The notes below the pieces were generated by a model. That model was not told the DNA's origin. It did not search any database and saw nothing but the letters and a program-made list of their open reading frames with translations. The position numbers and the translations under genes are program-made. Positions 9,688-59,591 of a stretch of 64,000 nucleotides of DNA are shown here, piece after piece (within the stretch, counting starts at the first letter, position 1; each line of letters starts with the position of its first letter). Source of the stretch: a virus; the IMG/VR virus record IMGVR_UViG_3300031758_000036, positions 21,757 to 85,756 of that record; one strand, written 5' to 3'.

Positions 9688-9731
9688 ATATATGCTTCGG
9701 CACCATAGTATCAGAGCTTTAGAATACAAAA

Positions 9732-9857
9732 GTGCAAGACGAAGAGAAGCCTGATCTATTAACAAAAATGCAGATGGCAGTTAGTGTGAATCGCCATTCA
9801 ATGTTACGTAAAAGCGCTGACAAAAAGCTAGTTAACGATGCGATATACGGCAAGTGA
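9732..9857 (+). CDS. Small hypothetical protein (41 aa, GTG start)
   Basis: Fills the gap; preceded by GGCACCATA motif at 9699; below ORF-track cutoff. Confidence 0.4.
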   Translation: MQDEEKPDLLTKMQMAVSVNRHSMLRKSADKKLVNDAIYGK

Positions 9858-9861
9858 ATTT

Positions 9862-9870
9862 GGCATACTA
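9862..9870 (+). promoter_or_regulatory. Putative late promoter element GGCATACTA (representative of about 20 GGHANNMTA copies)
   Basis: Recurs in intergenic gaps upstream of structural and lysis genes. Confidence 0.65.
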
Positions 9871-9880
9871 ACGCGCCCTT

Positions 9881-9938
9881 AGGCGTGATGCCTGCAGACA
9901 TGTCCGACGAAAATCAATCCGCACTTGAGATGGGTGCG
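9881..9938 (+). promoter_or_regulatory. Two GNGAY-pentaloop hairpins flanking the scaffold start codon
   Basis: AGGC-GTGAT-GCCT (9881-9893) and CGCACTT-GAGAT-GGGTGCG (9920-9938). Confidence 0.6.
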
Positions 9939-10637
9939 ACCAGCTCTGGAGAACGCAATATTCCAGATCCAGGTGATAACCGCAGTTATTCTGAAGAAGA
10001 AGTCCAAAACTTGCTGAAAGCTCTGAAATCGGAGCGCGAAGCTCGTAAAGTATACGAGAAAGAGGTAAAAGAAAAAGCAGCAATGCTTGAAAAATTTGCC
10101 GATATTCAGCCTGAAGAATATCGTAAATTACAAGAAGAAGTTGCCACTTCCGCAAGGGAGAAGGCCGCAGTAGAGGAACGGACTGCATTGCTGGAGGAGA
10201 AGTATGGCTCCCAGGCTGCAGAAGCAGCTAAGGCGCGAGATTCTGCTAATCGCGAACTGCAAGAATTCCGCAAGCGTTATGCGCTTGAAAAGGTATTCTT
10301 TGCTGCAGGCGGTCGGACTGATTCCGCTGATGGCGTATCTTTCTTTGATATGCTAGCAAATCAAATTGGTGCTCAATTCCGACTTGAAGTTGATGGCAGT
10401 ATTACTGTAGTCGACAATGCTGGTGATCCTGTGTTGGATAAAGAATCTGGCCGCCGATTGAACCCTGAAGATTACTTAGGTCAGTTCAAGACGCACCCGA
10501 TTTATGGTACCTTCTTCAAAGGTAACAAAGGTTCTGGTGCTGGTATTGGCTATGGCGGCACCGATACTGTTGGCATGACTGGTGAAGATTTGCACGCTCT
10601 CAGTCGTGATGAATTGTTCCAGCGTGCATTTGGCTGA
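9900..10637 (+). CDS. Capsid scaffolding protein
   Basis: Acidic N-terminus, coiled-coil 'LKALKSEREARK', C-terminal 'FFKGNKGSGAG'; directly upstream of MCP; ATG at 9900 preferred over GTG at 9885. Confidence 0.85.
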   Translation: MSDENQSALEMGATSSGERNIPDPGDNRSYSEEEVQNLLKALKSEREARKVYEKEVKEKAAMLEKFADIQPEEYRKLQEEVATSAREKAAVEERTALLEEKYGSQAAEAAKARDSANRELQEFRKRYALEKVFFAAGGRTDSADGVSFFDMLANQIGAQFRLEVDGSITVVDNAGDPVLDKESGRRLNPEDYLGQFKTHPIYGTFFKGNKGSGAGIGYGGTDTVGMTGEDLHALSRDELFQRAFG

Positions 10638-10661
10638 CAATAATTAAGCCATTATATACGA

Positions 10662-10686
10662 AAGCCGGCCCATTGGGTCGGTTTTT
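10662..10686 (+). terminator. Intrinsic terminator after scaffold
   Basis: GCCGGCCC-ATT-GGGTCGGT stem plus T tract. Confidence 0.7.
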
Positions 10687-10721
10687 ATTGCATTTTTGGA
10701 ATCATAAGTTTGAGTACCCAG

Positions 10722-10789
10722 CCCTGAATTGGTTGAGATGACCGATCGGGGAGGGTCTAGCGCCAATGGATGAGACATCCAATCAGGCG
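10722..10789 (+). promoter_or_regulatory. Structured capsid mRNA leader with two GAGAY-loop hairpins
   Basis: ATTGGTT-GAGAT-GACCGAT (10728-10746) and TGGAT-GAGAC-ATCCA (10767-10781), both with outer stems. Confidence 0.65.
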
Positions 10790-10833
10790 ATTTACCTTTC
10801 CTGTTCATTGTTCATCTATCCCTTTTAGGAATC

Positions 10834-11733
10834 ATGGCCTTAACTCTTGCTGAAGCTAAGAAGCATTCTAGCAACCCCCAGGAGCTTGCAATCGTTACCG
10901 AGCTTGCTGCTGGTCCCCTGCTGCAAAACCTGCCGTTCCGTGAAGTCCAAGGCAACGGTCTGTTCTGGAAGCGTGAGGAGTCCCTTGGTGATGTGGGCTT
11001 CCGTACGTTCAACGCTGGCTACACCGAAAGCTATGCCACCGTCAAGCAGCACAGCGAAGCGCTGAAACTGTTCGGTGGTGACATCAAGGTTGACCGCGCT
11101 ATCGTCGACCTGGAGGGCCCCGAGGCCCGCGCTTACCAGATCCAGTCCAAGACCCGCGCAATGCGCCTGGCTTTTGAAGGCCTGTTCATCAACGGTGACT
11201 CCAATACCACCGGCGCTGAATTCGATGGTCTGGCTGTGCGCCTGCCTGATGGTTCCAGCCAGTATATCGCGAACGCTGGTGCTCCTGCTGCCCTGGATAC
11301 CGGCGCCCTGGACGAAGCTATTGATGCTGTGGACGCCCAAGGCGGCCAGAAGTATCTGGTTATGTCCAAGTCGGCCCGTCGTCATCTGAGCAAGGTGGCT
11401 CGCGCCAATGGTCAAATCGACATCGAGCGCAACGATTTCGGTTACCAGCAACTGTTCTACGGTGGCATTCCGGTGCTTGAGCTGGACCGCGACCATCAGA
11501 ACGTGGCCATCCTGGATAGCGATCCTACTGATCAATCGATCTATGTGGTTGCTTTCGGCAATGACCTGCTGACCGGTCTGCAGAACGGTGGCCCTCAGGT
11601 GCGTGACCTGGGTGAAGCAACCGATTCGCCGGTCCTGGTGACCCGCGTTGAATGGTACTGCGGGGTGGCTTTGATAAATGGCCGAGCTGCTGCACGTCTC
11701 GCCAACGTCAACGCAACTGCTGCTATCGCCTGA
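10834..11733 (+). CDS. Major capsid protein (HK97-type)
   Basis: 299 aa; MALTLAEA..LPFREVQGN..GGDIKVDRAI..FINGD..EFDGL..TRVEWYCG; strong C-ending codon bias; scaffold upstream and strong terminator downstream. Confidence 0.9.
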   Translation: MALTLAEAKKHSSNPQELAIVTELAAGPLLQNLPFREVQGNGLFWKREESLGDVGFRTFNAGYTESYATVKQHSEALKLFGGDIKVDRAIVDLEGPEARAYQIQSKTRAMRLAFEGLFINGDSNTTGAEFDGLAVRLPDGSSQYIANAGAPAALDTGALDEAIDAVDAQGGQKYLVMSKSARRHLSKVARANGQIDIERNDFGYQQLFYGGIPVLELDRDHQNVAILDSDPTDQSIYVVAFGNDLLTGLQNGGPQVRDLGEATDSPVLVTRVEWYCGVALINGRAAARLANVNATAAIA

Positions 11734-11761: not shown

Positions 11762-11785
11762 GAGCCCTTCGGGGCTCTTTTTTTT
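11762..11785 (+). terminator. Intrinsic terminator after MCP
   Basis: GAGCCC-TTCG-GGGCTC plus T8. Confidence 0.95.
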
Positions 11786-11846
11786 GACTAGTGGCAATGA
11801 TGAATAAATATTGGTATCATGTGGATGCGTCACTGCCATCAGCCAG

Positions 11847-12395
11847 ATGAGACCCCTTCCCGCATTGCCTCACATTAGTGTATTAAATGAATATCTTGAG
11901 ATTGATCCAGCCATACCCGCTGGATTAAGGTGGAAGACGAGGGCTTCAAAAAATACACGCATCGGATCACCAGCGGGCAGAAAGCATTCCAATGGCTACT
12001 GGGAAGTTAGGCTCCAGGGTGTGCTGTACAAAAGCTCAAGGATAATATATAAAATTTATAACAATGGAGAAGATCCTGGCCTGTTCGAGATAGATCACAT
12101 TGACAGGAACAAGGACAATAATGCTGGATGGAATCTTGTGCTTGCAACAAGAGCAGAACAGGCTCGAAATAAGACGGTTACGTCCAAGGCTGGTTTCAGG
12201 CATGTGGCTTTTGATGCTCGCACTCGCAGGTCTTCTGCTCCATGGATGAGTACAGTCTCATTTAGGGTTGATGGCGTCAGGAAAGCCAAATTCCTAGGCT
12301 ATTTCTTAAATCCATACGAAGCGGCAATTGCAGCTATCGTTTATAAACGTGAAAATGGTATCAGGTATGAATATGCTCCTGGAGGAGCGGTCTAG
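11847..12395 (+). CDS. HNH homing endonuclease with AP2-like C-terminus
   Basis: EIDHIDRNKDNN..NL..AEQARN; FLGYF..YEAA. Confidence 0.85.
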   Translation: MRPLPALPHISVLNEYLEIDPAIPAGLRWKTRASKNTRIGSPAGRKHSNGYWEVRLQGVLYKSSRIIYKIYNNGEDPGLFEIDHIDRNKDNNAGWNLVLATRAEQARNKTVTSKAGFRHVAFDARTRRSSAPWMSTVSFRVDGVRKAKFLGYFLNPYEAAIAAIVYKRENGIRYEYAPGGAV

Positions 12396-13331: not shown

Positions 13332-15995
13332 ATGACCACACCTTCGCCCAGGAATCCAATCAGAATTGCCCGTGGTCTGTATGCAGATCTACTGGCTTCT
13401 GTAGCTGATCTGGGTGAAGGCGAGATTTGTTTTGCACAAGATCAGGATACGTTATATGTAAAAGAGAATGGTGTACTGACGCTGGTTTCTGGTGGCGTCA
13501 GCTCTACGCTGGTCAGGGAGATTGCTGGCATTGATCAAACTGGCGAACCGATGGGTCACGCCAATCGTTCGGACAGTGGTATTTCTTTTGATAGCGGTTC
13601 ACGTATATTTACGATTGAACCTGTTACTGCATCGTTTGATGTATGGTGCCGTGGGATCAAGTATACATACGTCAGTGCGCAATCGATAACGATTCCCGAT
13701 ACGACCGGCCTGTATTATGTATATTTTGACGAAGACGGTGATCTGCAGTACCAGACATCGTTCTTTGATCTGGAATATCAGGCACCCACTGCTTATATTT
13801 ACTGGAATGCGGATACAAATCAAGCAGTGTATTTTGGCGATGAGCGTCATGGCATTGTGCTTGATTGGCAGACGCATGAATACCTGCACAGGACACGTGG
13901 TGCTGCGTTTGCAAGAGGTCTGGAGCTAGTCGCCTATACAGTACTTGGCGGCGGTGCCGTAAATACAGATGCGCAAGTCAGCCTAGAAAACGGTGTATTC
14001 TTTGACGAAGATATCCAAGTAGATATTATTCACTCTGCCGACCCCGTCGCCAATACGTGGCAGCAGGACTTGCAGGGACCTGGACTGATTCCTGTTTTAT
14101 GGAGAAATGCTACTTCGTGGACACTTGATGCCGCTTCAGAATATCCCCTGAAAGCCGGCACTCTCAGGCCGCAATATAACCTAGAAGGAATTGGCGGATC
14201 ATGGAGCACGGTCGATGCCGATAGTGGTAAGTATATTTGCGTATTTCTTATTGCAACAAACAATTTAAATCATCCAGTTGTCTCTATTCTTGGCCAGACG
14301 CAACATAATAATATAGCCAGTGCGCAAACCGAGACTTGGTCTACGCTTGATTTAACTGGATTCCCTTCGCTTGAATTCAGACCGCTGTACCAACTGATTT
14401 ATCAGTGTGGTGCATATGGTAACGCAATATCTGCACGGCTCAGGGGTGTATCTGATCTCAGGTATACGCAAGCAGGCATCTCGATTACCGGCCAGGTGGG
14501 CGCCACTGGCCCCGTGGGGGCCACTGGTGCTATTGGCGCTACTGGTGCCACTGGTATTGGCGAAACGGGCCCTACGGGCGTCGAGGGCCCCACTGGCGTT
14601 ACTGGGCCGGTTGGTCCGACTGGCCCTATTGGCATTACGGGTCCAACGGGCGTTGAGGGGCCTACGGGTGCCAGCGGTCCGACTGGTCCGACTGGACCGA
14701 TTGGCATTACGGGCGCGACGGGCGTGGTTGGTCCTAGCGGACCTACGGGACCTACGGGACCAATTGGCATTACAGGTGCCACAGGTGTAGTTGGCCCAAG
14801 TGGACCCACTGGCCCGACCGGCCCAACTGGTCCGATTGGTATAACTGGGGCTACTGGCGTTGTTGGTGTTAGTGGCGCTACTGGTATCGAAGGACCGTCT
14901 GGACCGACTGGTCCGACTGGACCCATTGGGCCTACTGGTCCGATTGGTATAACTGGGGCCACCGGCGTTGACGGTCCAACTGGCCCAAGTGGACCGACTG
15001 GCCCGATTGGTTCAACCGGACCCACTGGTGTTGCTGGTATCAGTGCAAGCGGCCGTATTTGGTACTTTGCGCAGACTGCTTCTGATATTAGTGGCTACGA
15101 AACATTGCAACCCGATTCTCCTGATTCGGCTCCTCAGGATGACATGACAGCAGTCACCACCAGTTCCAGCGGCGAGGTTCTGATAAATGAATTCGTCACC
15201 GCTGTCGGCGACCCTGATCTCGAAGAACTGCCAACTGGTGAATATGAAATTCGTTTCTGGAGTTATGTGTCCAGTAATGATGGCGACACGCGGCTAGTGT
15301 TCCGTGTTTATAAGCGTGCAACGAGCGGTACTGAAACGCAACTATTCTATTTGGATTCGCCGGAAATTAACGCAACTGCAGCAAGTTATTACAATCAACT
15401 CCTGGTTAATACTCAACCAAATGTAATTGATCCGACTGATCGTATTGTAACAAAAGTATACGCAAAGACCACCAGTAGTAACAATATTACCGCGCACTTT
15501 GTGCATTCTGGTACGACGCCCAGCTCCTGGAGAACTGCTATTACGTTGGGCTATGTTGGCCCCCAGGGTGCCACCGGTCCAACTGGTGTTCAGGGTCCAA
15601 CTGGTCCGATTGGTATTACTGGAGCTACCGGCCCGGATGGTTCAACTGGTCCCACCGGTGCAGATGGTCCCACTGGCCCCAGCGGGGTCATTGGGGTTTC
15701 TGGCGCCACTGGCGTTGTCGGAGTAACCGGCGCTACTGGCGTCGTAGGTGTTACTGGTGCGACTGGCGTTGTCGGTGAAACCGGTGCAACTGGCGTCGTT
15801 GGTATTACTGGCGCCACGGGCGTTGGTGGCGTTACAGGTGCAACTGGTCCGATTGGCATTACAGGCCCCAGCGGTGTCATAGCAGATGGCGACAAAGGAG
15901 ATATAACTATTTCTGGTAATGGTACACTGTTAAAAGTTAACCCGGTCGTCTACGGCCGAGTCCTCGCTGCCCAGTACGGCGCAGCAATGCCCTGA
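13332..15995 (+). CDS. Collagen-like tail fibre
   Basis: N-terminal '[22 protein letters not shown]' anchor motif; two long G-X-T collagen tracts. Confidence 0.85.
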
Positions 15996-16013
15996 CGTTC
16001 GCTTTTACCTCTC

Positions 16014-16466
16014 ATGGCCGCCAACACTTCCCCCATCTGGACGCTGACCCCCAACGTCTCGGGCGTTGACATTGCAACAACAGCCGCAAACGTCAATACC
16101 ACTGCTCCTGGCACCATCGGAACCAACTGCTTCCTAGCGTTCACCTCCGGCGCCGACGGCTCCTACCTACAAAAGGTTCGCTTCTCCTTTGTCTCAACCA
16201 CCAGTGTAATCTCCAGCGTTGCCACAACGCTTCAGGTTTACGTATCTACCATCAACACTGGCGCAACATCTGCGGCCAACACCGATCTAATCGTGAACGT
16301 ACAGGCCGCATCGCAAGCAATTCCAAACACATCAACAGCACCTTATGTAATCGAGATTCCCCTTAACTACGCAATCCCAGCCGCCAGGTATATTCTAGTC
16401 ACACAATCTGTTGCTCAAACCACCAATTCTAACTGGCAAGCAATGGTGATCGGAGGTAACTACTAA
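16014..16466 (+). CDS. Fibre-associated small structural protein
   Basis: MAANTSPIW..GGNY family usually found before glycine-rich fibre genes. Confidence 0.55.
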   Translation: MAANTSPIWTLTPNVSGVDIATTAANVNTTAPGTIGTNCFLAFTSGADGSYLQKVRFSFVSTTSVISSVATTLQVYVSTINTGATSAANTDLIVNVQAASQAIPNTSTAPYVIEIPLNYAIPAARYILVTQSVAQTTNSNWQAMVIGGNY

Positions 16467-23265: not shown

Positions 23266-23286
23266 GTTATAGGAAGCATAGTTACA

Positions 23287-23317
23287 GAATCGCGCCACTA
23301 CTCTACGGGGCGGATTC
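23287..23317 (+). repeat. 31-nt leader hairpin, copy 1
   Basis: GAATCGCGCCACTACTCTACGGGGCGGATTC, identical to 23715-23745. Confidence 0.95.
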
Positions 23318-23336
23318 GTTCACCAGGAGAATTCTA

Positions 23337-23696: not shown

Positions 23697-23714
23697 ATAG
23701 GTAATCTATTTCAG

Positions 23715-23745
23715 GAATCGCGCCACTACTCTACGGGGCGGATTC
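23715..23745 (+). repeat. 31-nt leader hairpin, copy 2
   Basis: Identical to 23287-23317. Confidence 0.95.
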
Positions 23746-23775
23746 TGTTAACCCTAGCCAATTTGGAGAATTACA

Positions 23776-32363: not shown

Positions 32364-33164
32364 ATGGCTCCCATTATCACAACGGACGAAATCACGTTTT
32401 GGATGAATGCAGCGGGAAGCAAGCCAATTCTGTCCAAGGATGAAGTCTGCTTAATTGCACGTAAGATTCGCTCCTCCGAGCCTGGCAGTTTAGCCTATAA
32501 GCGTTGTGTGAATAAATTGGTTGCACACAACCTGAGATTGGTTATTCGATCTGTTCATTTGCATATGGGCAGTAAAACACGCAAGAATTGGGGCGGCGTC
32601 GAAACACTTGACTTTCTCCAGGCCGGTGCGCTAGGGCTAATCAGAGCGGCAGAAAAATATGATCCTGAGATGGGATATACGTTTGCTACATACGCAACGT
32701 TCTGGATTCGTTCCGCCATTGGTCGATATGGGATTAAGGCATCCAGCATCTTTCACATACCAGAGAACGCGTGCAGAGATGCTTATGCTTTTGAGAAGCA
32801 TGGATTTATCAGGAAGAAGTCAAAAGAAGAAAGTATGCATCTGACGCAAATGGTGCGTTCGGCACAGTCCGCTATTTCGATTGATGCTCCAATAAGAGAA
32901 AACGCCGACATATCCATTGTCGACGCAATTGAAAGCACTTATGCCCCGCCCCATTCAGGCCAGGGCCGCTTCTCCCCAGAAATGGAGGAAGCTATGAAGA
33001 TCGCTAATCTGACAGCAGATCAAGTCCTGATTTTGGAATGGACTTTTATTGATGAAATGAAAGTCAAAGACATTATTAAAATGACGGACATGACCAAGAA
33101 TCAGGTCTGCCACCTCCGCAAAACCGCTCTGCATAAGCTCAAGTTAGCAATGGTTGCGGTATAA
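32364..33164 (+). CDS. Sigma70-family sigma factor, RpoD/group 2-like
   Basis: Region 1.2-like N-terminus; NLRLVI..DFLQAGALGLIRAAEKYDPEMGYTFATYATFWIRSAI; region 4-like C-terminus. Confidence 0.9.
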   Translation: MAPIITTDEITFWMNAAGSKPILSKDEVCLIARKIRSSEPGSLAYKRCVNKLVAHNLRLVIRSVHLHMGSKTRKNWGGVETLDFLQAGALGLIRAAEKYDPEMGYTFATYATFWIRSAIGRYGIKASSIFHIPENACRDAYAFEKHGFIRKKSKEESMHLTQMVRSAQSAISIDAPIRENADISIVDAIESTYAPPHSGQGRFSPEMEEAMKIANLTADQVLILEWTFIDEMKVKDIIKMTDMTKNQVCHLRKTALHKLKLAMVAV

Positions 33165-33581: not shown

Positions 33582-34073
33582 TTGGCCGTTTCTATTCTTG
33601 GGTCACGGGCAATGGTGAATTGTTTAAGAATTGACGAGATTGCTCCAGGTGCGTGCGGTCTTCTGATTGACGAGATGCCGCTCCTAACCGTGTCGCATGT
33701 CAAGCCGTACATTGTTGCGGTATTACTGCATAGGGGCGCTGTGCGGGTTACAGAGGTCACTCCTGGCCTTGTGCCGCACTGCAGCCCGTCAGACCTAAAG
33801 GTAGGCGGCTGGGATCCTTTTGAAGAGGATTACTGCGAAGAAATTACCAGGATGGAAAAAGTCGTAGAAGACGCTCTTGGTGAGTTCGTTTCAGATGGAT
33901 TGCTTCGCTATAATGAAGAGCAAGATCTGTGGGTGCTGACTGCTGATCGTTTGCCGACGATAGTTTCTTGGGTTACCTCCCTTGGCGCAAAGTTGCCCCA
34001 GCATCTTTCGCTTGAACTTAGTCGGCAGCAATCAAATCGGATACCCGACTATATTGAGTATCATTCGGCTTAA
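33582..34073 (+). CDS. Hypothetical protein
   Basis: ORF in operon; start may be ATG at 33612. Confidence 0.5.
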   Translation: MAVSILGSRAMVNCLRIDEIAPGACGLLIDEMPLLTVSHVKPYIVAVLLHRGAVRVTEVTPGLVPHCSPSDLKVGGWDPFEEDYCEEITRMEKVVEDALGEFVSDGLLRYNEEQDLWVLTADRLPTIVSWVTSLGAKLPQHLSLELSRQQSNRIPDYIEYHSA

Positions 34074-34081
34074 TTGCGCAA

Positions 34082-34315
34082 ATGACTAAAAGCAGTAAAG
34101 GTCAGCTAACGGAAGGTCAAAGATTAGCGCGGCCGCCTTTCCCTCTTCCTTTGTTTGTAAGAGGAGCAAAAGTACAGGTATACCTGGGTGCTGGCTGGAG
34201 CACTGGCAGTGTTGTCAGCAGTCATCAAGACCGGTGTCAAGTAACACTGATAACTGGCAATAGGACTATTACCGTTACTGACGCAAGGTCTATTCGTTCT
34301 CACCATAATGAGTGA
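34082..34315 (+). CDS. Small SH3/Tudor-like hypothetical protein
   Basis: GAKVQV..WSTGSVV pattern. Confidence 0.45.
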   Translation: MTKSSKGQLTEGQRLARPPFPLPLFVRGAKVQVYLGAGWSTGSVVSSHQDRCQVTLITGNRTITVTDARSIRSHHNE

Positions 34316-36181: not shown

Positions 36182-36859
36182 ATGCACGATGCAAAATTAG
36201 TTGCTCTTACTCAAGGAGCGGAAGAGCACGCCTTGAAACATGCTCAAGAAATCATTATGTACGTTGCCCGTGTTAGCAATCCTTCTAATCAGGATAGCAG
36301 TAATACTGGGCTGCTGAAATATTGTATCAGGGAAAAGCATTGGTCAATTTTTGAAATGGCTAATATGGTCCTGGAAATCAACACAACCAGGGCGATTAGT
36401 CCACAAATTTTGCGTCATCGTTCTTTTTCGTTTCAGGAATTTTCGCAACGCTATGCCACTATTGACAGTTTAAGCGCCTCAATTCCATTACCAGATTTGC
36501 GGCGACAGGATACCAAAAATCGCCAAGCAAGTCATGATGACCTTGACGAGGATCTGAAGCGTGATCTTCAAGCTAATATTGATAACCTTTACGAGCACGC
36601 AAATGATGTATATCAACTACTGCTTCAGAAGGATGTAGCAAAAGAGTGCGCGAGGGAAGTCCTGCCGATTGGTTCGCCAACAAGGCTATATATGAATGGC
36701 ACCCTCAGGAGCTGGATTACATATATTGCGCTCCGAGAAAAAAATGGAACACAACTTGAGCATCAAATGATTGCAAAGTCTTGCAAACAAATATTTTGCA
36801 AGCATCATCCGATTATTGGCAATGCCCTCGGTGGTGTCGATACGCCGTGGGAAATCTAA
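36182..36859 (+). CDS. thyX: Flavin-dependent thymidylate synthase
   Basis: HWSIFE, QILRHRSFSFQEFSQRY, ECAREVLP, TQLEH. Confidence 0.95.
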   Translation: MHDAKLVALTQGAEEHALKHAQEIIMYVARVSNPSNQDSSNTGLLKYCIREKHWSIFEMANMVLEINTTRAISPQILRHRSFSFQEFSQRYATIDSLSASIPLPDLRRQDTKNRQASHDDLDEDLKRDLQANIDNLYEHANDVYQLLLQKDVAKECAREVLPIGSPTRLYMNGTLRSWITYIALREKNGTQLEHQMIAKSCKQIFCKHHPIIGNALGGVDTPWEI

Positions 36860-36875
36860 GTATCAGGGATTGATC

Positions 36876-37514: not shown

Positions 37515-37716
37515 ATTTCCTGATCCAAATTTCCCTCTAATCGTAACAGAAGAGGAGGATGGCTCGTTTACACTGGAGTGGGATGACCTTCATCCTATTA
37601 CATCTGTTTTCAATAACTATACGGAGCAAGACTTTATCGACATGCTGACCGCTGGAGCAATCGATACCCTACAGGACAATGAAGAATTAGATGCATCAAA
37701 ACAGGTTGAAGACTGA
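37507..37716 (+). CDS. Small acidic hypothetical protein
   Basis: EEEDGSFTLEWD family; overlaps both neighbours. Confidence 0.55.
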   Translation: MNKFPDPNFPLIVTEEEDGSFTLEWDDLHPITSVFNNYTEQDFIDMLTAGAIDTLQDNEELDASKQVED

Positions 37717-40250
37717 TGGCTACTAGAGCTGGTAAAATCTTTCTTGAAAAAGCAGGATCAGACCGCGAAATGGTTCGCGAGCTGCGAAAAGCTAAGACGC
37801 AAAGGAAAGAAGGTGGCCAGCAAATAGTACTGCATCAGTTTATCAAATCGGTATCTCCTAACTATAAATTTTACAAGGTCCACGCAGAATTAACGAAACA
37901 ACTGCAGCGAATCATTGACGGAAAATGCAAGCGGTTAATTATTCAAATTCCACCAAGGACTGGTAAAAGTTTTCTGTCCTCTAAGTTATTTCCAGCAGCA
38001 TATTTACTGGCCCATCCAGATCGATATGCTGGCATCGTCTCCTATAGCGCAGAGCTGGCTGAAGGCTTCTCGCGGTCTGCCAGAGATTACTACAGGCAGG
38101 CTGGAGGGACATTTGACCCATACAAGCAAGCCGTAAACGATTGGGGTACCCAAGGCGGTGGCGGGTTATGGGCGTCGGGTGTTGGAGGCGCTATCACCGG
38201 CCGCTCAGGCCATTTGCTGATCATTGACGACCCTGTCAAGAACAGGGAAGACGCTGACAGCCCAAGGGTGATGGAAAAACTATGGGACTGGTACACATCG
38301 ACTCTTTACACTCGCCTTGAACCAGAAGTCGGATCAATTGTTGTGATTCAATGCATGACCGGTGATACAAATGTAACCATGAGCGATGGTTCTTGCCGCA
38401 GGCTGGATACAATTAGGCCAGGCGATGAAGTCTTGTCATGGAAGAATGGATCTGCTGTTACTAGAACTGTACTGAATCATAAATGTCAGGGAGAGGACGA
38501 TGTATTTGAGATAAGAACCGCGAGTAGTAGGGTGAAGGCGAATGCGAGGCATCCGTTTTTAGTGCAACGCGAAGATGGGGCCCATGAATGGGTCAGGGTT
38601 GAGGATTTACGGATTGGCGATTCCCTGGTGGCGTCATCCCGCCTTGAATTTGACAATCCCGCGCAAGTAACCGAGCAACAGGCTTGGCTTCTTGGTTATA
38701 TGTTTGGAGATGGCTGGATAACCAGTCGAACCGGTACGCGGCTAGATGCCAATGGTAAAAGGTATCCAAGATCAGGATTCGTAACATGTGTTGCATGTCC
38801 CAAACCAGACGAGGAAAGGGAAAAGATTATGACAGCGTTTCAATCGATATGGGGTTTTAGGCCGAAACTGACTCGTTATGGCTACTACAGGACCGAGAGG
38901 CAGGAGCCAGGGAAATGGTTCACTGCTTTTGGGCTTACTGGAACAGCCAAGACCAAGAGGGTGCCATTGTGGATGTACTCTCAGCCTGCTGAGATTCGCC
39001 AAGCCTTTTTATCTGGATATCACGAAGCGGATGGCGCTACATTTAGTACGGGCAAGGCCGCAGGTAGGTATACGTTTGGCTCATGTAACCCAGATCTGAT
39101 CAACGATATTAGACAAATAGCAAGGGGATTGGGATATTCAGTCACGAATATTAGCGTATATGAAAGCATGATACAAGCTCCCAACAGTCCTGCGCCAGTA
39201 TTATCTAAAAATTGCAATTTACAATTCAACCCATGGTCAAAAAACGAATCAGAATTTCGTACTCATAAAATCAGATCAATTAAAAATATTGGGAGGGAAT
39301 TAGTATATGACATTCAAGTCGAGGACACCGAATGTTTCATAGCAGATGGACTAGTGTCTCACAATACTCGCTGGAGCGAAAATGACCTGATTGGCAGGCT
39401 GATTGAGTCTGAAATGAACGTATCCGAAAAAGGCAGAGAAAATTGGACAATACTTGACCTGCCTGCTATATCCGAGGATGCTGGTTCGCGACCGCCACTG
39501 CCAGAGCATTGCGATGTTGTACCTGATTGGCGAGAAGAGTCTGGGCTAGCACTGTGCCCACAGCGATATGGTATAGAAGAATACGAACGCATACGTGAAG
39601 CGATAGGCACCAGGGATTTTGCTGCTTTGTATCAGCAGCGACCAGCACCTGAGGGCGGCAATATGTTTGACCCTAGTTGGTGGCAATACTATGATCACGG
39701 CACTGAGCTGCCGGAGTTCCAAAGGTTAATGCTTAGCGTTGACTGTACTTTTACTAACTCTAGTTCTAGTGACTATGTTGTTGGTAGCGTAGTAGCCCAA
39801 GCCGGCAATCGATTTTATGTAATCGATATGGTCAGGGAGAAAATGGATATCATTGCAACGATATCAATGATATCAAGAATGTATAACAAACATGCACTTA
39901 GCGGCACGATTATTGAACTTGCAGCGTCTGGTTATGCTGCTTATCAAATGCTAAGCAAAAAAGTGCCAGGTTTAATTGGTTTCAAGCCAGAGAAATCAAA
40001 AACAGCTCGCGCTGCTGGTATCGTCCCAATAATCGAAGCAGGTAATGTGTATTTACCAACAAGCGCACCTTGGCTAGATGCCTTTGTGAATGAATTCAGC
40101 CTATTCCCAGCAGCAAAGAACGATGACATCGTCGACTCTGTTGGCATGGCTATTAATTACATGTCTCAAAGATCGGCTCCCGTGATGACAGAAGTTAGCT
40201 GGGGCCGTGGAACAACTTTACCCTATAATTATAATAACAGTGTAATCTAA
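37716..40250 (+). CDS. Terminase large subunit, intein-containing
   Basis: PPRTGKS, LLIIDDPVKN, ALYQQRP, SVDCTF..SDY, NDDIVDS. Confidence 0.95.
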   Translation: MATRAGKIFLEKAGSDREMVRELRKAKTQRKEGGQQIVLHQFIKSVSPNYKFYKVHAELTKQLQRIIDGKCKRLIIQIPPRTGKSFLSSKLFPAAYLLAHPDRYAGIVSYSAELAEGFSRSARDYYRQAGGTFDPYKQAVNDWGTQGGGGLWASGVGGAITGRSGHLLIIDDPVKNREDADSPRVMEKLWDWYTSTLYTRLEPEVGSIVVIQCMTGDTNVTMSDGSCRRLDTIRPGDEVLSWKNGSAVTRTVLNHKCQGEDDVFEIRTASSRVKANARHPFLVQREDGAHEWVRVEDLRIGDSLVASSRLEFDNPAQVTEQQAWLLGYMFGDGWITSRTGTRLDANGKRYPRSGFVTCVACPKPDEEREKIMTAFQSIWGFRPKLTRYGYYRTERQEPGKWFTAFGLTGTAKTKRVPLWMYSQPAEIRQAFLSGYHEADGATFSTGKAAGRYTFGSCNPDLINDIRQIARGLGYSVTNISVYESMIQAPNSPAPVLSKNCNLQFNPWSKNESEFRTHKIRSIKNIGRELVYDIQVEDTECFIADGLVSHNTRWSENDLIGRLIESEMNVSEKGRENWTILDLPAISEDAGSRPPLPEHCDVVPDWREESGLALCPQRYGIEEYERIREAIGTRDFAALYQQRPAPEGGNMFDPSWWQYYDHGTELPEFQRLMLSVDCTFTNSSSSDYVVGSVVAQAGNRFYVIDMVREKMDIIATISMISRMYNKHALSGTIIELAASGYAAYQMLSKKVPGLIGFKPEKSKTARAAGIVPIIEAGNVYLPTSAPWLDAFVNEFSLFPAAKNDDIVDSVGMAINYMSQRSAPVMTEVSWGRGTTLPYNYNNSVI
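38352..39365 (+). mobile_element. Intein (338 aa) with LAGLIDADG homing endonuclease
   Basis: Starts CMTGDT, block B ANARHPFL, LGYMFGDG and LSGYHEADG, ends VYDIQV..GLVSHN followed by Thr; excision restores VVIQ-TRWSENDL. Confidence 0.95.
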
Positions 40251-40880
40251 ATGTCAAGAAAATCGCTAGATTTCAAGCTAACGCCACAACAGCAGAAAAT
40301 GGCGATAGACAATATCAATTTAGCTCGCCGGGAGGCTTGGCGGGTGCAAAGAACCACTGGAATTGAATATTCTGTTCTAGAAGGAGCCGCTTTTCTGGGG
40401 CTATGTAAGGCGTGCCATCGATTCGACCCCGAATCGGGATATAAATTTTCCAGTCTTGCAACTCCAACAATCAGAGGCGAGATATTGCATTGGGTGCGTG
40501 ATAAAACCTATGCTATGCGTTTATCGCATAAAATGAGAGAGAATTGGATAAAAGGAAGGAAGATGCTATTCAATGGCTCTAATGATCTGCAAATAGCAAA
40601 AGCATTAGAGATGTCGATCGAAGAATGGCAAGAAACCAGGTCGGCATGTTCAGGCCCTCCCCTTGAACTGAAAGATCAGGCAATGCCTTCCGATCCGTTG
40701 GAGCCCGAGGAAGTTGACTTCAAATGTGATTACAGGTCAAAAGCAGAGGAAGCAATAGGAATGATGAGCGAAAAAGAACACGATATGCTAATAGCATATT
40801 ATAAAGGTGACACATCGAAACCACCCATAAGGCAGTTCAAGTATCTGTGTGCAAATCTTAAGAATTATAACATTACATGA
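40251..40880 (+). CDS. SigF/SigB-like (group 3) sigma factor, apparently lacking region 4.2
   Basis: NINLARREA..GLCKACHRFDPESGYKFSSLATPTIRGEILHWVRD; IAKALEMSIEEW. Confidence 0.85.
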   Translation: MSRKSLDFKLTPQQQKMAIDNINLARREAWRVQRTTGIEYSVLEGAAFLGLCKACHRFDPESGYKFSSLATPTIRGEILHWVRDKTYAMRLSHKMRENWIKGRKMLFNGSNDLQIAKALEMSIEEWQETRSACSGPPLELKDQAMPSDPLEPEEVDFKCDYRSKAEEAIGMMSEKEHDMLIAYYKGDTSKPPIRQFKYLCANLKNYNIT

Positions 40881-46621: not shown

Positions 46622-46675
46622 GGAAACCTAAGGAAGCCATAGGCGTGACGCCGGCACAACACTAGGCGCGATGCC
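46622..46675 (+). promoter_or_regulatory. Late motif GGAAACCTA plus two GNGAY hairpins in portal leader
   Basis: GGC-GTGAC-GCC (46642-46652) and GGC-GCGAT-GCC (46665-46675). Confidence 0.6.
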
Positions 46676-46678
46676 CCC

Positions 46679-48142
46679 ATGCAAGTCGTTCATCCGGTAA
46701 ATAATCCTGCTCTGGTTAGCTATCATCGACCAGAGCTTATTGATTTAATGCCGAGCCTTGAGCTGGCATTAGATTGCTGGAATCTGCTTGATACTAACGG
46801 CAGGGGGACTGCTAAGGCAAAATATTTACTCCAGGAACCAGCAGAGCCCAAGAAAGCCTACGAGGCCCGTCTTCATCGATCTACTTATACACCAATTTAC
46901 AGGGATTCAATTCGCGCCTATGCCGGATTGCTGAATCGGTTTCAACTTATTGATGCGCCTCCTAGCCTGGTAGCATCAGAAAATAACGTTGACTTACAAG
47001 GATCTAGCGTCCACAGTTTTTGGAATCGTTGTGACGAACAAGCCATCAGAGATGGTGGTGTTTTCATCATGGTTGACATGATGCCAGAAACTGGGGATGT
47101 GAGCAATTTCATTGATCAGCAGAAAGATGGCAGGCATCCCTATCTGATCATGATTGAACGCAAGGACGTTATCAATTGGTCGGTTGAATACAAGGGCGGC
47201 AGGGAATATGTTCATCACGCTACAGTTAGGCAAATCAAGTCAGTTCCAGATCCCAGTGGGTATGGCGTAAAATTAGAACCGTATTATTATGTACTAAAGC
47301 CAAATCTGGTTGAAGAATATCGACTTGAGAAGAGGGACGGTAAATGGTTGCAAATCAAAACCGATTCGGTTGTAACAACTCTGCCGATTGTTCCATTGAT
47401 CTGGTATGGCGCATCTACCAGTAAATTTGGTCAGGGTGACTTGCCGATGAATGGCCTGGCTGAATTAAGCGTTCAGCATTATCAAATGCGTTCAGACCTG
47501 AACGAACTGCTGCACAAGTGTGCAATGCCTGTACCTGTCAGGAAAGGCGCCCCGACAGGCGTAGACGGGCGCCCTGCAGCATTAGTGCTTGGTCCAAACA
47601 CAGCAGTTGATCTGCCCGCAGAAGGTGGAGATTTCAGTTTTGCTGAGCCAACTGGACGCAGTATTGAGCGCCACCAAGCGGAAATAACTCACGTAGAAGG
47701 GCTGATGGATAGGTCGGGCCTTAATTTCTTGTATGGCGCAAATATTAAGACAGCGACAGAAGCATCTCTTCGGGCGTCTCAAGTAGCATCACAAGTGGCG
47801 TCGCTGGTCAGGAACAAGGTCAGTTCCTTTAATACAGTAATGAGATTGTGGGCAGTTTATGCTGGAGAGACTACTACTCTGTCTCCCGAATCAGGTATTT
47901 CCCTGAATGACAGCCTGATCAATCGACCGATAGATCCAAGCGGCATTGCTCAGATGGTTAACCTGCATAACGCAGGATTACTAAGTGGTGCCACCGTGCT
48001 GTCTGAGTTGCAACGCGGCGGTGTCTTGGACCCTGACCTGAAAGTAGAAGAAGAACTTTCCAGAATCGACAAGGAGTCAATTGCGCCCCCACCGGTCAAG
48101 AATACCGAACCACCTACCGTCAATCCTTTAGGAAAACAATAA
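46679..48142 (+). CDS. Portal protein (DUF4055-like)
   Basis: YLLQEPAE..AYEARL, NVDLQGSS, VINW, HYQMRSD..LH, KTATE, TVLSELQRGGVL. Confidence 0.85.
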   Translation: MQVVHPVNNPALVSYHRPELIDLMPSLELALDCWNLLDTNGRGTAKAKYLLQEPAEPKKAYEARLHRSTYTPIYRDSIRAYAGLLNRFQLIDAPPSLVASENNVDLQGSSVHSFWNRCDEQAIRDGGVFIMVDMMPETGDVSNFIDQQKDGRHPYLIMIERKDVINWSVEYKGGREYVHHATVRQIKSVPDPSGYGVKLEPYYYVLKPNLVEEYRLEKRDGKWLQIKTDSVVTTLPIVPLIWYGASTSKFGQGDLPMNGLAELSVQHYQMRSDLNELLHKCAMPVPVRKGAPTGVDGRPAALVLGPNTAVDLPAEGGDFSFAEPTGRSIERHQAEITHVEGLMDRSGLNFLYGANIKTATEASLRASQVASQVASLVRNKVSSFNTVMRLWAVYAGETTTLSPESGISLNDSLINRPIDPSGIAQMVNLHNAGLLSGATVLSELQRGGVLDPDLKVEEELSRIDKESIAPPPVKNTEPPTVNPLGKQ

Positions 48143-48160: not shown

Positions 48161-48397
48161 GTGTTATACTGGATTAGACAGTGCCAGCCAATGATTTTAG
48201 CACGCATAGAGTTCAAGCAAGAGCATGCTGAGAAGTTTATCGAATCATCTGGTAACAATCAGACCGTTATCGAGCAGACATTTGAGTCGGTCGATGAGCT
48301 GATCGAAGTCCTTCGGGAATTTGAGCCATTCATCAAAGACTGCACGGCAGTGGTCAATGGTAAAATGCTTCAGTTGAGTTCCTTCAAGGCTAAGTGA
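48161..48397 (+). CDS. Hypothetical protein
   Basis: ORF; true start probably ATG at 48191. Confidence 0.5.
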   Translation: MLYWIRQCQPMILARIEFKQEHAEKFIESSGNNQTVIEQTFESVDELIEVLREFEPFIKDCTAVVNGKMLQLSSFKAK

Positions 48398-48759
48398 ATC
48401 ATCCGCTACCGGCAGGCAAGTGGCTACGATCAGCCGGTGGCAGTTTCGCATATCAAATACTAGGTCCCGTCTGTCGCCTGTATGACCGCGAGGAACTGCC
48501 CTGGCCATGCTGCCGGCTAAGTTGGAAGGGCAAGGAGCCAAGTTGGAATCGCATCGGAAGCAGGTTCGTGCCAGATGTTGCAACGTCGCGCTGCCCCAGC
48601 TACGCTGTGTATGGAACTGATCAGTGGGGGAATGAATGGAACCAAGTCCTGACCATCTACAACAGGAAATTGACTCCAACGGAAAAGCAGTGGTGGATAA
48701 CAAAGAAGCCACCACATCTGGCGTATCCGGAACTGCCAAGCGACCTATCCGAGGACTAG
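48394..48759 (+). CDS. Hypothetical protein
   Basis: GTGA overlap; Trp/Cys-rich. Confidence 0.5.
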   Translation: MNHPLPAGKWLRSAGGSFAYQILGPVCRLYDREELPWPCCRLSWKGKEPSWNRIGSRFVPDVATSRCPSYAVYGTDQWGNEWNQVLTIYNRKLTPTEKQWWITKKPPHLAYPELPSDLSED

Positions 48760-48891
48760 ACTGGACTTCCATTTTGTCCAGGTCAAACCTGGAAAGTCCT
48801 GGATACAGGGAAACCATAGAAAAAATGAAGGCAGATGGCAGGCTGAAAAATCAGTTATAATGAGCTTAAGCATGGCATCTATTGCTGGATC

Positions 48892-55239: not shown

Positions 55240-55590
55240 GTGCCGCATAAAGACCCGGAAAAAAGCAGAAAATATAAAACCGAATGGGCAAGGCGGAATC
55301 GCTCTATTAAGAGTTCATTGCCATACTTTAAAGCAAAAAAGCAGATAATATTTGAAGCCAAGAGTAAGCCATGCGCGATCTGTAAACAGACCTTCCCGCC
55401 GCAAGCAATGGATCTGCATCACGTTGATCCGGCAGGTAAAGAATTTACGGTATCTACTGCCCTGCGAAAAGTTGGGTACGAAAAACTGATACAGGAAATC
55501 AACAAATGCGTTGCACTGTGCGCTATTTGCCACAGACTGCTACATGCTGGACTGGTGGAAATGGAATACCCGATGTCAGATTCGAACTGA
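55240..55590 (+). CDS. Zn-binding HNH endonuclease
   Basis: CAIC..MDLHHVDP..CVALCAICHRLLH. Confidence 0.85.
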   Translation: MPHKDPEKSRKYKTEWARRNRSIKSSLPYFKAKKQIIFEAKSKPCAICKQTFPPQAMDLHHVDPAGKEFTVSTALRKVGYEKLIQEINKCVALCAICHRLLHAGLVEMEYPMSDSN

Positions 55591-55641
55591 CACTGTGAGG
55601 ATTTTAAGTCCTCTGCCTGCTGCCAATTGGGCTAATCGGGC
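55567..55641 (-). tRNA. tRNA-Leu(UAA) with short variable loop
   Basis: GCCCGAT/ATCGGGT acceptor; GAGGA-CTTAAAA-TCCTC anticodon arm; GTCAG-TTCGAAT-CTGAC T arm; discriminator A; CCA not encoded. Confidence 0.9.
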
Positions 55642-55747: not shown

Positions 55748-56404
55748 ATGAGTTGCAGAAAGAAAGATATAATTGATCGTCATCACATTACTCCGAAGTA
55801 CAAAGGAGGCACGGATGACGCGGAAAATATAGTAAAAATATCCAGAACATGTCATGCGATGTTTCATTATTGCAATTGGCAACTATGGGGTAATACTGAA
55901 GACTATGTTGCGTATAAAGGCCTTTCTTCCCAGTCCAATAAATGTGAAATAATAAAAGCTTTATCCAGTATGAACGGCAAGAGGATGTGCGAAGAGAAAA
56001 AAGGAATATTTTCCCTTACGGATGAAGAGAGGAGGAGATATTCTTCAATTGGCGGCAAAAAGGCTGGAAAATATATGTCAAATTCGATGTGGATTAACAA
56101 TGGCGCTCAAAATAAGCGGATACCAAGATCCGATATGCCTCCAGTCGGATGGGAAAAGGGTAAGATAAAAAAACCTAAAAAGTGCCAGAAAAGAACATGG
56201 CGAGAATACCTTGACGGCTTCGATGATATTTACAAGGAAAGATTAGAGTATTTGAATGACAAAAATTTAAACGAATGGGGAATTAAAACTAAAATAGCTA
56301 AAGACTGGGGCATATCTAGGACACAGGTGAATAGGTTCTTGTTTAAATTCTCTGATAAGGTCGGAATAGGAGCGGCCGGGATCGAACCGGCAACCTTGCG
56401 CTAA
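55748..56404 (+). CDS. HNH homing endonuclease
   Basis: HHITPKYKGGTDDAENIV..HAMFH; MWINNG DNA-binding motif; AT-rich. Confidence 0.85.
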   Translation: MSCRKKDIIDRHHITPKYKGGTDDAENIVKISRTCHAMFHYCNWQLWGNTEDYVAYKGLSSQSNKCEIIKALSSMNGKRMCEEKKGIFSLTDEERRRYSSIGGKKAGKYMSNSMWINNGAQNKRIPRSDMPPVGWEKGKIKKPKKCQKRTWREYLDGFDDIYKERLEYLNDKNLNEWGIKTKIAKDWGISRTQVNRFLFKFSDKVGIGAAGIEPATLR

Positions 56405-56459
56405 TCTGGCGCTAATACGGAGTATAAAGCCGCTGTTCTACCAATTGAACTACGCTCCC
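56367..56459 (-). tRNA. tRNA with UAU anticodon (Ile) and long variable arm
   Basis: GGGAGCG/CGCTCCT acceptor; GTTC-AATTGGTA-GAAC D arm; GCGGC-TTTATAC-TCCGT; extra arm GCGC-CAGATTA-GCGC; GCCGG-TTCGATC-CCGGC. Confidence 0.85.
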
Positions 56460-56573: not shown

Positions 56574-56948
56574 ATGCCCCGCCAAACCAAGTCCCGCACC
56601 AGTCGCCGCCGCCTGCAAGGGCAACGCATCTTGGATTTCGTGTCAACCCATCGGATTGCCGGTAATGGTATCCTGGGCGTTACCGCTGCCAGGAAGTTTG
56701 CTTCAAAAAACAAAATTTCCTATCCTGCGGTGATTCATGTCCGCCGGAATGGCTACACCATCGATAGTTTCTTTTTGGCAGAAAAAGGAATGTTTGGACT
56801 GACCTATGCCGAATTCAACTGGATGTTATTTCCTTGCCTGAAGGAACTGGTCGAAAAAATTGGCCCAAGTCAGTTGTTTTCTGACCTGGACCTGTATGAC
56901 TGGGCTTCTGAAGAAGAAAGCTATAGGGTTGACTATGCTTTTGTTTAA
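56574..56948 (+). CDS. Hypothetical protein
   Basis: 124-aa ORF. Confidence 0.55.
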   Translation: MPRQTKSRTSRRRLQGQRILDFVSTHRIAGNGILGVTAARKFASKNKISYPAVIHVRRNGYTIDSFFLAEKGMFGLTYAEFNWMLFPCLKELVEKIGPSQLFSDLDLYDWASEEESYRVDYAFV

Positions 56949-59297: not shown

Positions 59298-59591
59298 ATG
59301 GGCAGCTACTGGGCTACGTCAAAATCTGAGGTTGAATTTTACTTGGTGCATGCCAGGAGGCCATTAGCTAGGAACAAGTTTTCTAGATTTCGTGGTGTGC
59401 ATAAAAATAGCAACCCGGACAAGCCTTTCAGGGTTGCGATCTGCTTTAACGGTAGGCGCATCCTTGGTGGCACTTACTCTGATGAGATTGAAGCAGCTAA
59501 GGCTTATAACGAGCTTGCTCTGCGTGTGGTTGGACCAAAGGCATTCTTCAATGAAATACCCGAGGAATCCGGTGAATCAAAAATCGCTTGA
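59298..59591 (+). CDS. AP2-domain DNA-binding protein
   Basis: SRFRGV..LGGTYSDEIEAAKAYN..GPKAFFN. Confidence 0.75.
   Translation: MGSYWATSKSEVEFYLVHARRPLARNKFSRFRGVHKNSNPDKPFRVAICFNGRRILGGTYSDEIEAAKAYNELALRVVGPKAFFNEIPEESGESKIA

Follow-up and report, generated by a model that had tools for sequence, protein, structure and literature searches.

Conserved GNGAY-loop hairpins mark the head-assembly messages of a freshwater cyanophage and its relatives: a candidate RNA signal read through its loop

The boxB hairpins of the lambda and P22 nut sites are read by the arginine-rich motif of N, and the scaffolding gene of P22 reportedly undergoes post-transcriptional autoregulation, for which, to our knowledge, no defined RNA element, loop motif or other RNA signal has been described since that control became known. 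How tailed phages set the portal:scaffold:capsid ratio and start each assembly on a single portal is largely unexplained. A necessary interaction between portal protein and mRNA has been proposed for P22, with credit to Bazinet, Villafane and King (1990), and the 2017 paper that recounts the proposal states that experimental evidence for it is scarce (PMC5529062). Here we analyzed a 64-kb stretch of DNA (positions 21,757 to 85,756 of IMG/VR record IMGVR_UViG_3300031758_000036; hereafter the window) that belongs to an 85.7-kb phage assembly and carries, at its scaffold, capsid and portal genes, hairpins capped by the five-base loop G-N-G-A-Y (GNGAY). The window phage is unrelated to P22. Its likeness to P22 lies in a candidate post-transcriptional control of the scaffold gene and in the notion that the mRNA of head genes participates in starting the procapsid.

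The window phage is a freshwater cyanophage, and the cultured phages nearest to it are the cyanosiphoviruses S-CRES1-3, S-CBS2 and P-SS2. The 20 sequencing runs listed for it are DNA metagenomes labelled lake, freshwater or "fungus", with no RNA run among them. An earlier note, made from the sequence alone, had described six GNGAY hairpins, two at each of three genes that it labelled scaffold, capsid and portal; all six hairpins are present where it placed them, and PHROG matches bear out the three gene labels (Table 1). Scaffold hairpin 1 begins 10 nt after a late promoter-like box and ends at -6 relative to the start codon, whereas scaffold hairpin 2 lies within the coding sequence, spanning codons 7-13 from +21, with its loop translated as Glu-Met or Glu-Thr. 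The scaffold ATG thus sits between its two hairpins, which bracket the start region. Measured from the start codon, the capsid hairpins lie at about -100 and -63. The portal gene lies 35 kb from the scaffold and capsid genes, behind the genes for ribonucleotide reductase and dCTP deaminase. Loop-to-loop spacing is approximately 42 nt at the scaffold gene, 37 nt at the capsid gene and 23 nt at the portal gene.

The hairpins recur at the same positions in related phages. Among 80 IMG/VR loci found by their capsid protein (71-94% identity), 79 had capsid hairpin 1, 79 had capsid hairpin 2 and 78 had the two together. Scaffold starts could be placed in 73 of these loci (five open reading frames were too short, one was cut at the locus end, and locus L054 was dropped because the wrong open reading frame had been taken); scaffold hairpin 1 occurred in all 73, and scaffold hairpin 2 was detected in 55. 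Of 18 portal loci, 16 included the start, and these contained hairpin 1 in 13 cases, hairpin 2 in 11 and both in 11. The hairpins are also found in S-CBS2, S-CRES1-3 and P-SS2. Alignments with S-CRES1-3 and S-CBS2 revealed the scaffold hairpin 1 stems TAGGC/GCCTG, CGGGT/ACCCG, CAGGG/CCCTG and CGGGT/GCCCG around G(T/A)GA(T/C), and likewise varied stems at the capsid hairpins. In S-CBS2, leader-located copies occur only at scaffold, capsid, portal and the small-terminase gene terS, and in P-SS2, a marine Prochlorococcus phage, hairpins occur at scaffold and capsid and not at portal. No alternative loop class was seen among four loci retrieved with the P-SS2 capsid query and 80 loci retrieved with a profile query. 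The 80 profile loci comprised 62 unique leaders, which carried at least two GNGAN hairpins in 42 cases, one in 16 and none in four (stems of at least 4 pairs). Scaffold and capsid are the constant core of the hairpin set, portal is a usual member and terS an occasional one. The set of three procapsid genes proposed in the earlier note is therefore marked across the whole lineage, and it is also wider and looser than proposed, in that it includes terS and leaves out some portals; the strict rule of two hairpins per gene did not hold, as some portal leaders carry three hairpins and terS carries one.

The portal leaders deserve separate description. Their hairpin 1 shows the stem variants AGC/GCT, TCTAGC/GCTGGA and CTTGGC/GCTAGG, and the hairpin 2 core GGCGCGAYGCC is identical in the window, S-CRES2, S-CRES3 and S-CBS2, a pattern of conservation with little covariation. 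Three portal leaders (L097, L101 and L104) keep the late box and have a different hairpin, GGYCG-...GCGCA...-CGRCC, together with a different portal N-terminus. They may represent a lineage that switched its signal; all three are fragments without a capsid gene. In S-CBS2 (NC_015463.1), the annotated portal start at 66329 is upstream of the two leader hairpins (66367-66396), and this start is probably too early because homology to the window portal begins at 66407.

That the stems vary while pairing and loop are kept, which the earlier note took to indicate an RNA element, was confirmed by covariation analysis: compensatory and G.U changes in the stems exceeded every control and the loop stayed fixed. 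For the capsid leader, an alignment of 58 distinct rows with 17 pairs had 87.9% paired cells, where shuffles reached 73.0% and sliding the partners gave 34-51%; double-sided changes numbered 164 against 61 in shuffles, and the covariation score of 0.512 against 0.244 was matched by none of 500 shuffles. At the scaffold gene (62 rows, 12 pairs), 86.7% of cells were paired against 66.2%, compensatory changes occurred in all 12 pairs, double-sided changes numbered 199 against 70, and the score of 0.621 against 0.253 was again matched by none of 500 shuffles. The rows are related sequences, with an effective number of 10.8 in the build of the capsid-leader model described below. Compensatory changes were found at all five pairs of scaffold hairpin 1 (90.5% of cells paired), all seven pairs of scaffold hairpin 2, all four apical pairs of capsid hairpin 1, below which the outer part of helix P1 covaries between AU and GC, and all six pairs of capsid hairpin 2. 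The four scaffold and capsid sites displayed 18, 44, 24 and 53 distinct stems, with 44 at capsid hairpin 2 and 53 at scaffold hairpin 2. Within the coding sequence, scaffold hairpin 2 keeps its pairing while the encoded residues change. G.U pairs are frequent in the capsid leader (for example, 27 GC with 18 GU and 32 CG with 21 UG), which indicates that the fold is selected on the sense strand.

In contrast to the stems, the loops hardly change. The first G was kept in 58/58 and 58/58 rows at the two capsid hairpins and in 62/62 and 62/62 rows at the two scaffold hairpins, and the G at position 3 and the A at position 4 were kept in 55-61 rows, the remaining rows being 2-3 nt out of alignment. 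U, A or C occupies position 2, and U or C position 5; the loop seen most often at three of the four sites is GTGAT, and scaffold hairpin 2 has GAGAY in 57 of 62 rows. Such freedom in the stems, set against the constancy of loop positions 1, 3 and 4, makes a base-specific reading of the loop most likely. A free stem and a fixed asymmetric loop, repeated at genes that are functionally linked and physically unlinked, are the signature expected of a loop-specific reader.

Each capsid hairpin caps one of the two domains that make up a conserved 5' fold, which extends over about 125 nt. In domain I, P1 pairs ACCC (10716-10719) with GGGT (10753-10756) and P2 pairs CCCTG (10722-10726) with CGGGG (10747-10751); farther downstream, alignment columns A114, C115 and C116 are near-invariant. 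A covariance model from the capsid leaders of relatives, a check that the earlier note had proposed, gave one match per genome over the 258 kb searched, always at the capsid leader, and the match in the window spans 10699-10836. Among phages outside the build, it scored 76 bits in S-CBS2, 61 in S-CRES1/2 and 49 in S-CRES3, and the match in P-SS2 was marginal (17 bits, E 0.1). In S-CBS2 an HNH gene is located between scaffold and capsid, yet the capsid leader remains with the capsid gene.

Folding of single sequences favored a different structure for this leader, in which the 3' strand of P1/P2 pairs with the downstream pyrimidine tract. This competing helix is the single-sequence minimum-free-energy structure and is thermodynamically favored in 54 of 58 leaders (mean -48.2 vs. 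-42.6 kcal/mol). As a conserved alternative it is possible and unsupported by the alignment, with 80.5% of cells paired compared with 79.7% in shuffles and a covariation score of 0.142 compared with 0.156. A relay model in which the conserved fold closes the ribosome-binding site was likewise rejected, since constrained folding predicts the site to be slightly more open in that fold (0.54 vs. 0.47) and is more open in 40 of 58 leaders. Because the competing helix is favored and the ribosome-binding site is not closed, the conserved fold, if formed in vivo, would need co-transcriptional trapping or a stabilizing ligand. Such a need would be compatible with a bound factor and proves nothing.

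A seventh hairpin was identified at terS (36771/36876-37514, phrog_6299), which is followed by terL (37716-40250). It ends 1 nt before the likely terS start ATG at 36876, and its counterparts are GGA-GTGAT-TCC in S-CBS2 and GCGGA-GTGAT-TCCGC in P-SS2.

All of these hairpins follow a late box. Of the 39 + strand copies of the late box family GGHANNMTA, 29 fall in the non-coding 18% of the DNA, and the copies mostly lie 19-136 nt before + strand gene starts; the - strand has 20 copies, six of them non-coding. On the + strand the boxes extend across the window from 6941 to 58506 (e.g., 9862, 10698, 12401, 19081, 19500, 23272, 23700, 43427 and 46622). The hairpin structures begin 7-10 nt after the late box and would thus be the first thing transcribed if the box is a -10 element. 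The window encodes two phage sigma factors (32364-33164 and 40251-40880), with the same synteny in S-CBS2 and P-SS2, and the late box is probably read by one of them. In the available text of the P-SS2 genome paper, the group 3 sigma factor is suggested to serve a particular regulon (PMC2784084). The terminator after the scaffold gene has equivalents in the S-CRES phages and S-CBS2, and the portal box is preceded by a terminator in relatives; scaffold, capsid and portal are separate late transcription units. Consistent with the earlier note, which had not noticed the motif ahead of tail, lysis or replication genes, only three of the 29 intergenic late boxes precede GNGAY pairs, and the other late leaders bear different hairpins. 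The boxes at 23272 and 23700, for instance, are followed by the same leader sequence, gaatcgcgccactactctacggggcg... (23272-23330 and 23700-23760), before the paralogous genes at 23337 and 23776, and this leader represents a 5' hairpin class different from that of the head genes.

Taken together, our findings suggest that the GNGAY hairpins are, with moderate probability, a loop-specific RNA operator for a putative reader. They would form a cis-acting RNA signal common to the head-assembly messages of P-SS2/S-CBS2-type cyanosiphoviruses. Scaffold, capsid, usually portal and sometimes terS would each be transcribed as a late unit of its own from a -10-only box, and each transcript would have as its first structure one to three stem-loops with a G-N-G-A-(U/C) cap. 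The loop would be read base-specifically by a single trans-acting factor (most probably a phage or host protein) that would control the translation and/or lifetime of the head messages as a set, in whichever direction. At scaffold, portal and terS, where the hairpin is placed at the start codon or ribosome-binding site in the manner of an operator, it abuts or brackets the ribosome-binding window, so that a bound factor could act directly on initiation; the capsid gene lacks this placement, and there the two hairpins would cap the larger leader fold some 50-100 nt upstream of the start codon. The earlier note's "RNA regulon for head assembly" is thus upheld for the element and for the gene set as the procapsid set of this phage lineage, the set being looser than it had stated.

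Several observations weigh against this proposal. The portal stems are near-invariant and add little to the covariation, three of the 16 portal loci and P-SS2 have another hairpin at portal, scaffold hairpin 2 went undetected in 18 of 73 loci, and the terS hairpin is absent in five of seven IMG/VR terS loci, some of which have uncertain starts. The transcript 5' ends are deduced from the late-box motif. A long distance separates the capsid hairpins from the ribosome-binding site, and forming them shifts its predicted accessibility only by the slight amount given above. The loop fits GNRA plus one base, and part of its conservation could reflect intrinsic folding. Both copy number (one to three) and loop spacing vary by gene, and for this reason the rigid dimer on hairpin pairs that the earlier note had in mind fits poorly. 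No reader was found: the open reading frames include no conserved arginine-rich protein, and no known RNA-binding family was met among the small proteins that are conserved. With a pI of 4.9, the scaffold protein is acidic, and it has no basic patch, which neither proves nor excludes it as the reader.

Among candidate readers, the open reading frame at 56574-56948 has an arginine-rich N-terminus and matches DUF3155 (E 1e-24), presumably a family confined to cyanobacteria. We rejected it because it has no homologue in 50,697 phage records and is therefore not co-conserved with the hairpins. Other arginine-rich matches in the open reading frame scan were mostly out-of-frame noise. Small core proteins shared with S-CBS2 and P-SS2, including 48394-48759, 33582-34073 and 34082-34315, matched no informative Pfam or PHROG family, and their link to the hairpins is co-conservation only. 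The first of these three (+ strand) encodes 121 residues rich in Trp and Cys, belongs to no known family, had no usable atlas match, is as conserved as the portal gene (62% identity to S-CBS2 gp092 and 53% to a P-SS2 stretch that lacks annotation) and is overlapped by a longer, probably spurious open reading frame on the - strand (48245-48817). That the reader is itself a procapsid component (portal, scaffold or capsid protein), coupling translation of the head messages to the state of assembly, seems unlikely to us. If it were so, the hairpins would provide feedback or even a physical tether, setting the portal:scaffold:capsid ratios and nucleating a single head on each portal, and they would be the first defined RNA element for the P22-era idea of a portal/scaffold-mRNA interaction.

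Chance has to be weighed first among the other explanations, as the pattern was chosen post hoc from many and one genome says little in its favor. When both strands of the window were scanned for GNGAY loops on stems of at least 3 pairs with G.U allowed, 27 hairpins were found on the + strand and 15 on the - strand. By this count the motif is not enriched: the 27 on the + strand compare with 28.4 +/- 5.8 in 100 dinucleotide shuffles, 62 of which reach 27. Close pairs, with loop centres within 50 nt, number four in the 85.7-kb genome compared with 0.42 in shuffles, and even three were reached by none of 200 shuffles; 62 of 384 equally degenerate loop patterns likewise make at least three close pairs in this genome. 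The six hairpins from a single genome alone are not beyond chance, and given such unremarkable statistics, pattern-picking by eye could have met a motif of this kind by chance. The fourth close pair (genome positions 15976-16015, 5.7 kb before the window) is itself probably chance, lying about 170 nt inside the coding sequence of a structural gene, without a late box and with no counterpart seen in S-CBS2. Lone GNGAY hairpins exist elsewhere, e.g., at 36132 before the thymidylate synthase gene, a site unmatched in S-CBS2. The question is settled by comparative data, namely presence in relatives and compensatory stem changes: hairpins occupy the same positions in 78/80, 73/73 and 11/16 related capsid, scaffold and portal loci, and their compensatory changes lie above all 500 shuffles and all slid controls. 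Chance is thereby refuted, and the probability left to it is negligible.

The conserved hairpins could also serve without any reader, as generic 5'-terminal stabilizers or insulators that protect the messages from 5'-end-dependent RNases and keep the ribosome-binding window open, with the loop a favorable cap. Their start 7-10 nt past the late box, where the transcript is predicted to begin, would suit this role, as would the hairpins with which other late leaders also begin, the scaffold hairpins that leave exactly the start-codon region single-stranded, and the failure to find a reader. However, the other late leaders of the same phage use quite different loops, so that GNGAY is not needed for 5' protection; moreover, the motif is restricted to genes of head assembly, one copy (at about +20) falls within a coding sequence, the capsid copies cap a larger fold, and G1, G3 and A4 are kept over 18-53 stem versions, beyond what stability usually demands. 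We therefore consider a pure stabilizer improbable. Still less credence attaches to a processing signal, in which host RNase III or E or a phage endoribonuclease would cut the hairpins to mature the head messages. Capsid domain I, with its long and irregular helix of some 20 bp, has the shape typical of RNase III sites, but the stems at scaffold, portal and terS are only 3-7 bp, RNase III is not known to read loops, and with a promoter box and a terminator for each gene there is no polycistronic precursor that needs cutting; this role is very unlikely. Promoter-proximal hairpins with GNRA-like five-base loops, in one to three copies per leader, also resemble boxB and the two-hairpin put RNAs, and nascent hairpins might modify RNA polymerase, with or without an N-like protein, for read-through of terminators. 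Yet scaffold and capsid each form a unit of box, leader, gene and terminator followed by a new box, no same-strand gene follows portal for about 1 kb, no leader has a boxA-like sequence nearby, the sole arginine-rich N-terminus is that of the DUF3155 open reading frame, which lacks homologues in other phages, and one hairpin lies within a coding sequence, all of which makes antitermination very improbable. Finally, the loops might pair with a fixed partner RNA: the 3' tail of 16S rRNA, the capsid leader's conserved TCACC block or a small RNA from the phage. The prevalence of GTGAT is in keeping with this, GUGAU being complementary to the single-stranded 16S rRNA tail, and the capsid leader retains a block complementary to GTGA. 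Against it, loop positions 2 and 5 vary without a matching change in the leader block, and scaffold hairpin 2 prefers GAGAY while portal hairpin 2 is always GCGAY, so that a fixed 5-nt partner would mismatch most copies. An RNA-RNA contact is accordingly highly improbable.

Table 1. Positions of the head-assembly genes, their late boxes, hairpins, leader domains and terminators in the window.
Feature	Position	Strand	Description
Late -10-like box, scaffold	9862..9870	+	GGCATACTA; near-invariant in 62 scaffold leaders
Scaffold hairpin 1	9880..9894	+	TAGGC-GTGAT-GCCTG; core AGGC-GTGAT-GCCT at 9881-9893, one pair longer than in the earlier note
Head scaffolding protein gene	9900..10637	+	phrog_206, E 8e-27; N-terminus conserved from ATG 9900
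Scaffold hairpin 2	9920..9938	+	CGCACTT-GAGAT-GGGTGCG; 5 Watson-Crick and 2 G.U pairs
Intrinsic terminator after scaffold	10660..10692	+	12-pair stem and T run
Late box, capsid leader	10698..10706	+	GGAATCATA; GGHANNMTA family
Capsid leader domain I	10713..10758	+	P1, P2 and apical hairpin 1
Capsid hairpin 1	10728..10746	+	ATTGGTT-GAGAT-GACCGAT
Capsid leader domain II	10761..10789	+	Outer CGCC/GGCG helix and hairpin 2
Capsid hairpin 2	10767..10781	+	TGGAT-GAGAC-ATCCA
Rest of capsid leader	10790..10833	+	Conserved (A/T)T(C/T)ACC(T/C) block, pyrimidine tract, TAGGA ribosome-binding site
Major capsid (major head) protein gene	10834..11733	+	phrog_212, E 3e-74
Terminator after capsid gene	11762..11777	+	Intrinsic
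terS leader	36850..36874	+	Late box GGAAATCTA at 36850-36858; hairpin ATCA-GGGAT-TGAT at 36862-36874
Late box, portal	46622..46630	+	GGAAACCTA; kept as CTGGAAMCCTA or CTGGCAAACTA in portal leaders
Portal hairpin 1	46636..46655	+	GCC-ATA-GGC-GTGAC-GCC-GGC; core GGC-GTGAC-GCC at 46642-46652
Portal hairpin 2	46665..46675	+	GGC-GCGAT-GCC; ends 3 nt before ATG 46679
Portal protein gene	46679..48142	+	phrog_145, E 3e-83; DUF4055

Other features of the window were noted in passing. A 29-codon open reading frame for a basic peptide (9768-9857) is flanked by late boxes, one at 9699 and the other the scaffold box at 9862. The terL open reading frame encodes 844 residues with terminase matches at residues 21-218 and 550-828; the insertion of about 330 residues between them has weak helicase- or recombinase-like matches and is possibly an intein or a homing element. 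At least five HNH/homing-endonuclease genes were found (11811-12395, 55240-55590, 55748-56404, 59298-59591 and 62108-62608), one of them directly after the capsid unit. Two tRNA genes (55567-55641 and 56367-56459) are on the - strand, opposite to nearly all genes, and the second match spans 93 nt, which points to a long variable arm or an insertion.

The earlier note could not tell whether the motif had been catalogued, and the comparison with Rfam that it suggested revealed no entry for it: at gathering scores, the window matches only two tRNAs in Rfam 15, and in a permissive scan of 9780-10860 the best match had an E value of 0.94, far below gathering scores. The literature on cyanosiphovirus promoters, capsid leaders and structured RNAs yielded no description of the GNGAY motif. 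In the available text of the P-SS2 genome paper, the words "hairpin", "stem-loop" and "motif" are absent (PMC2784084), and the motif goes unmentioned in the available part of PMC6157547. According to the accessible portion of a 2023 survey, 10,006 candidate structured viral RNAs include five upstream of the capsid family PHA00201, which may or may not include the GNGAY element (PMC10690425). The structured capsid 5' leader of about 125 nt is thus uncatalogued in Rfam, and it now has a covariance model. A compact conserved RNA signal marks the head messages even though their genes lie tens of kilobases apart, and it spans marine, estuarine and freshwater cyanophages, including the cultured S-CBS2 (host Synechococcus CB0204) and P-SS2 (host Prochlorococcus MIT9313). 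A hairpin of 13-19 nt with three invariant loop bases also offers an experimental handle, both as bait for the reader and, by mutation, as a test of stoichiometry.

How the hairpins compare with described RNA elements depends on loop, placement and gene set. In the E. coli thrS operator, a dimeric enzyme binds two similar hairpins at the ribosome-binding site. The scaffold gene resembles it in having its initiation region placed between two hairpins that share a loop; the thrS loops mimic a 7-nt anticodon loop, whereas here the loop has 5 nt and the spacing differs between genes. The leader stabilizers of ompA and T7 phi10 share a stem-loop a few nucleotides from the predicted 5' end, but they need no particular loop, while the loop here is conserved and confined to head-assembly genes. 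The dual hairpins targeted by ANTAR proteins have six-base loops, the second hairpin overlapping a terminator; here each loop has five bases, and the hairpins are not followed by a T run. CsrA/RsmA sites display GGA in a hairpin loop, unlike the motif described here, in which position 2 was never G in 58 capsid and 62 scaffold rows and only the terS copy of the window reads GGGAU.

Two kinds of operator come closest. Like boxB, the hairpins have a short stem of free sequence, a conserved, purine-rich loop of five bases that resembles GNRA in sequence and a promoter-near position. G-N-G-A-Y reads as GNRA plus one base, and the extra base would sit at loop position five. They differ from boxB in that they precede late head genes with their own terminators instead of early operons, occur in one to three copies per leader with one copy in a coding sequence, and have neither a conserved arginine-rich protein nor a boxA nearby: with a 9-base consensus, the window has four one-mismatch boxA matches, none of them in a leader, compared with 12.9 expected by chance. 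Like the coat-protein hairpins of MS2, PP7 and Qbeta and the T4 gp32, gp43 and RegA sites, those at scaffold, portal and terS would be small loop-specific hairpins at the start region, and if a virion protein or an abundant phage protein were the reader, feedback linked to assembly would result. They depart from that type in having a different loop, a double-stranded DNA phage, a multi-gene set and capsid copies 50-100 nt upstream of the start. By analogy, the GNGAY hairpins would thus work most like boxB- or coat-protein-type operators while being a member of neither.

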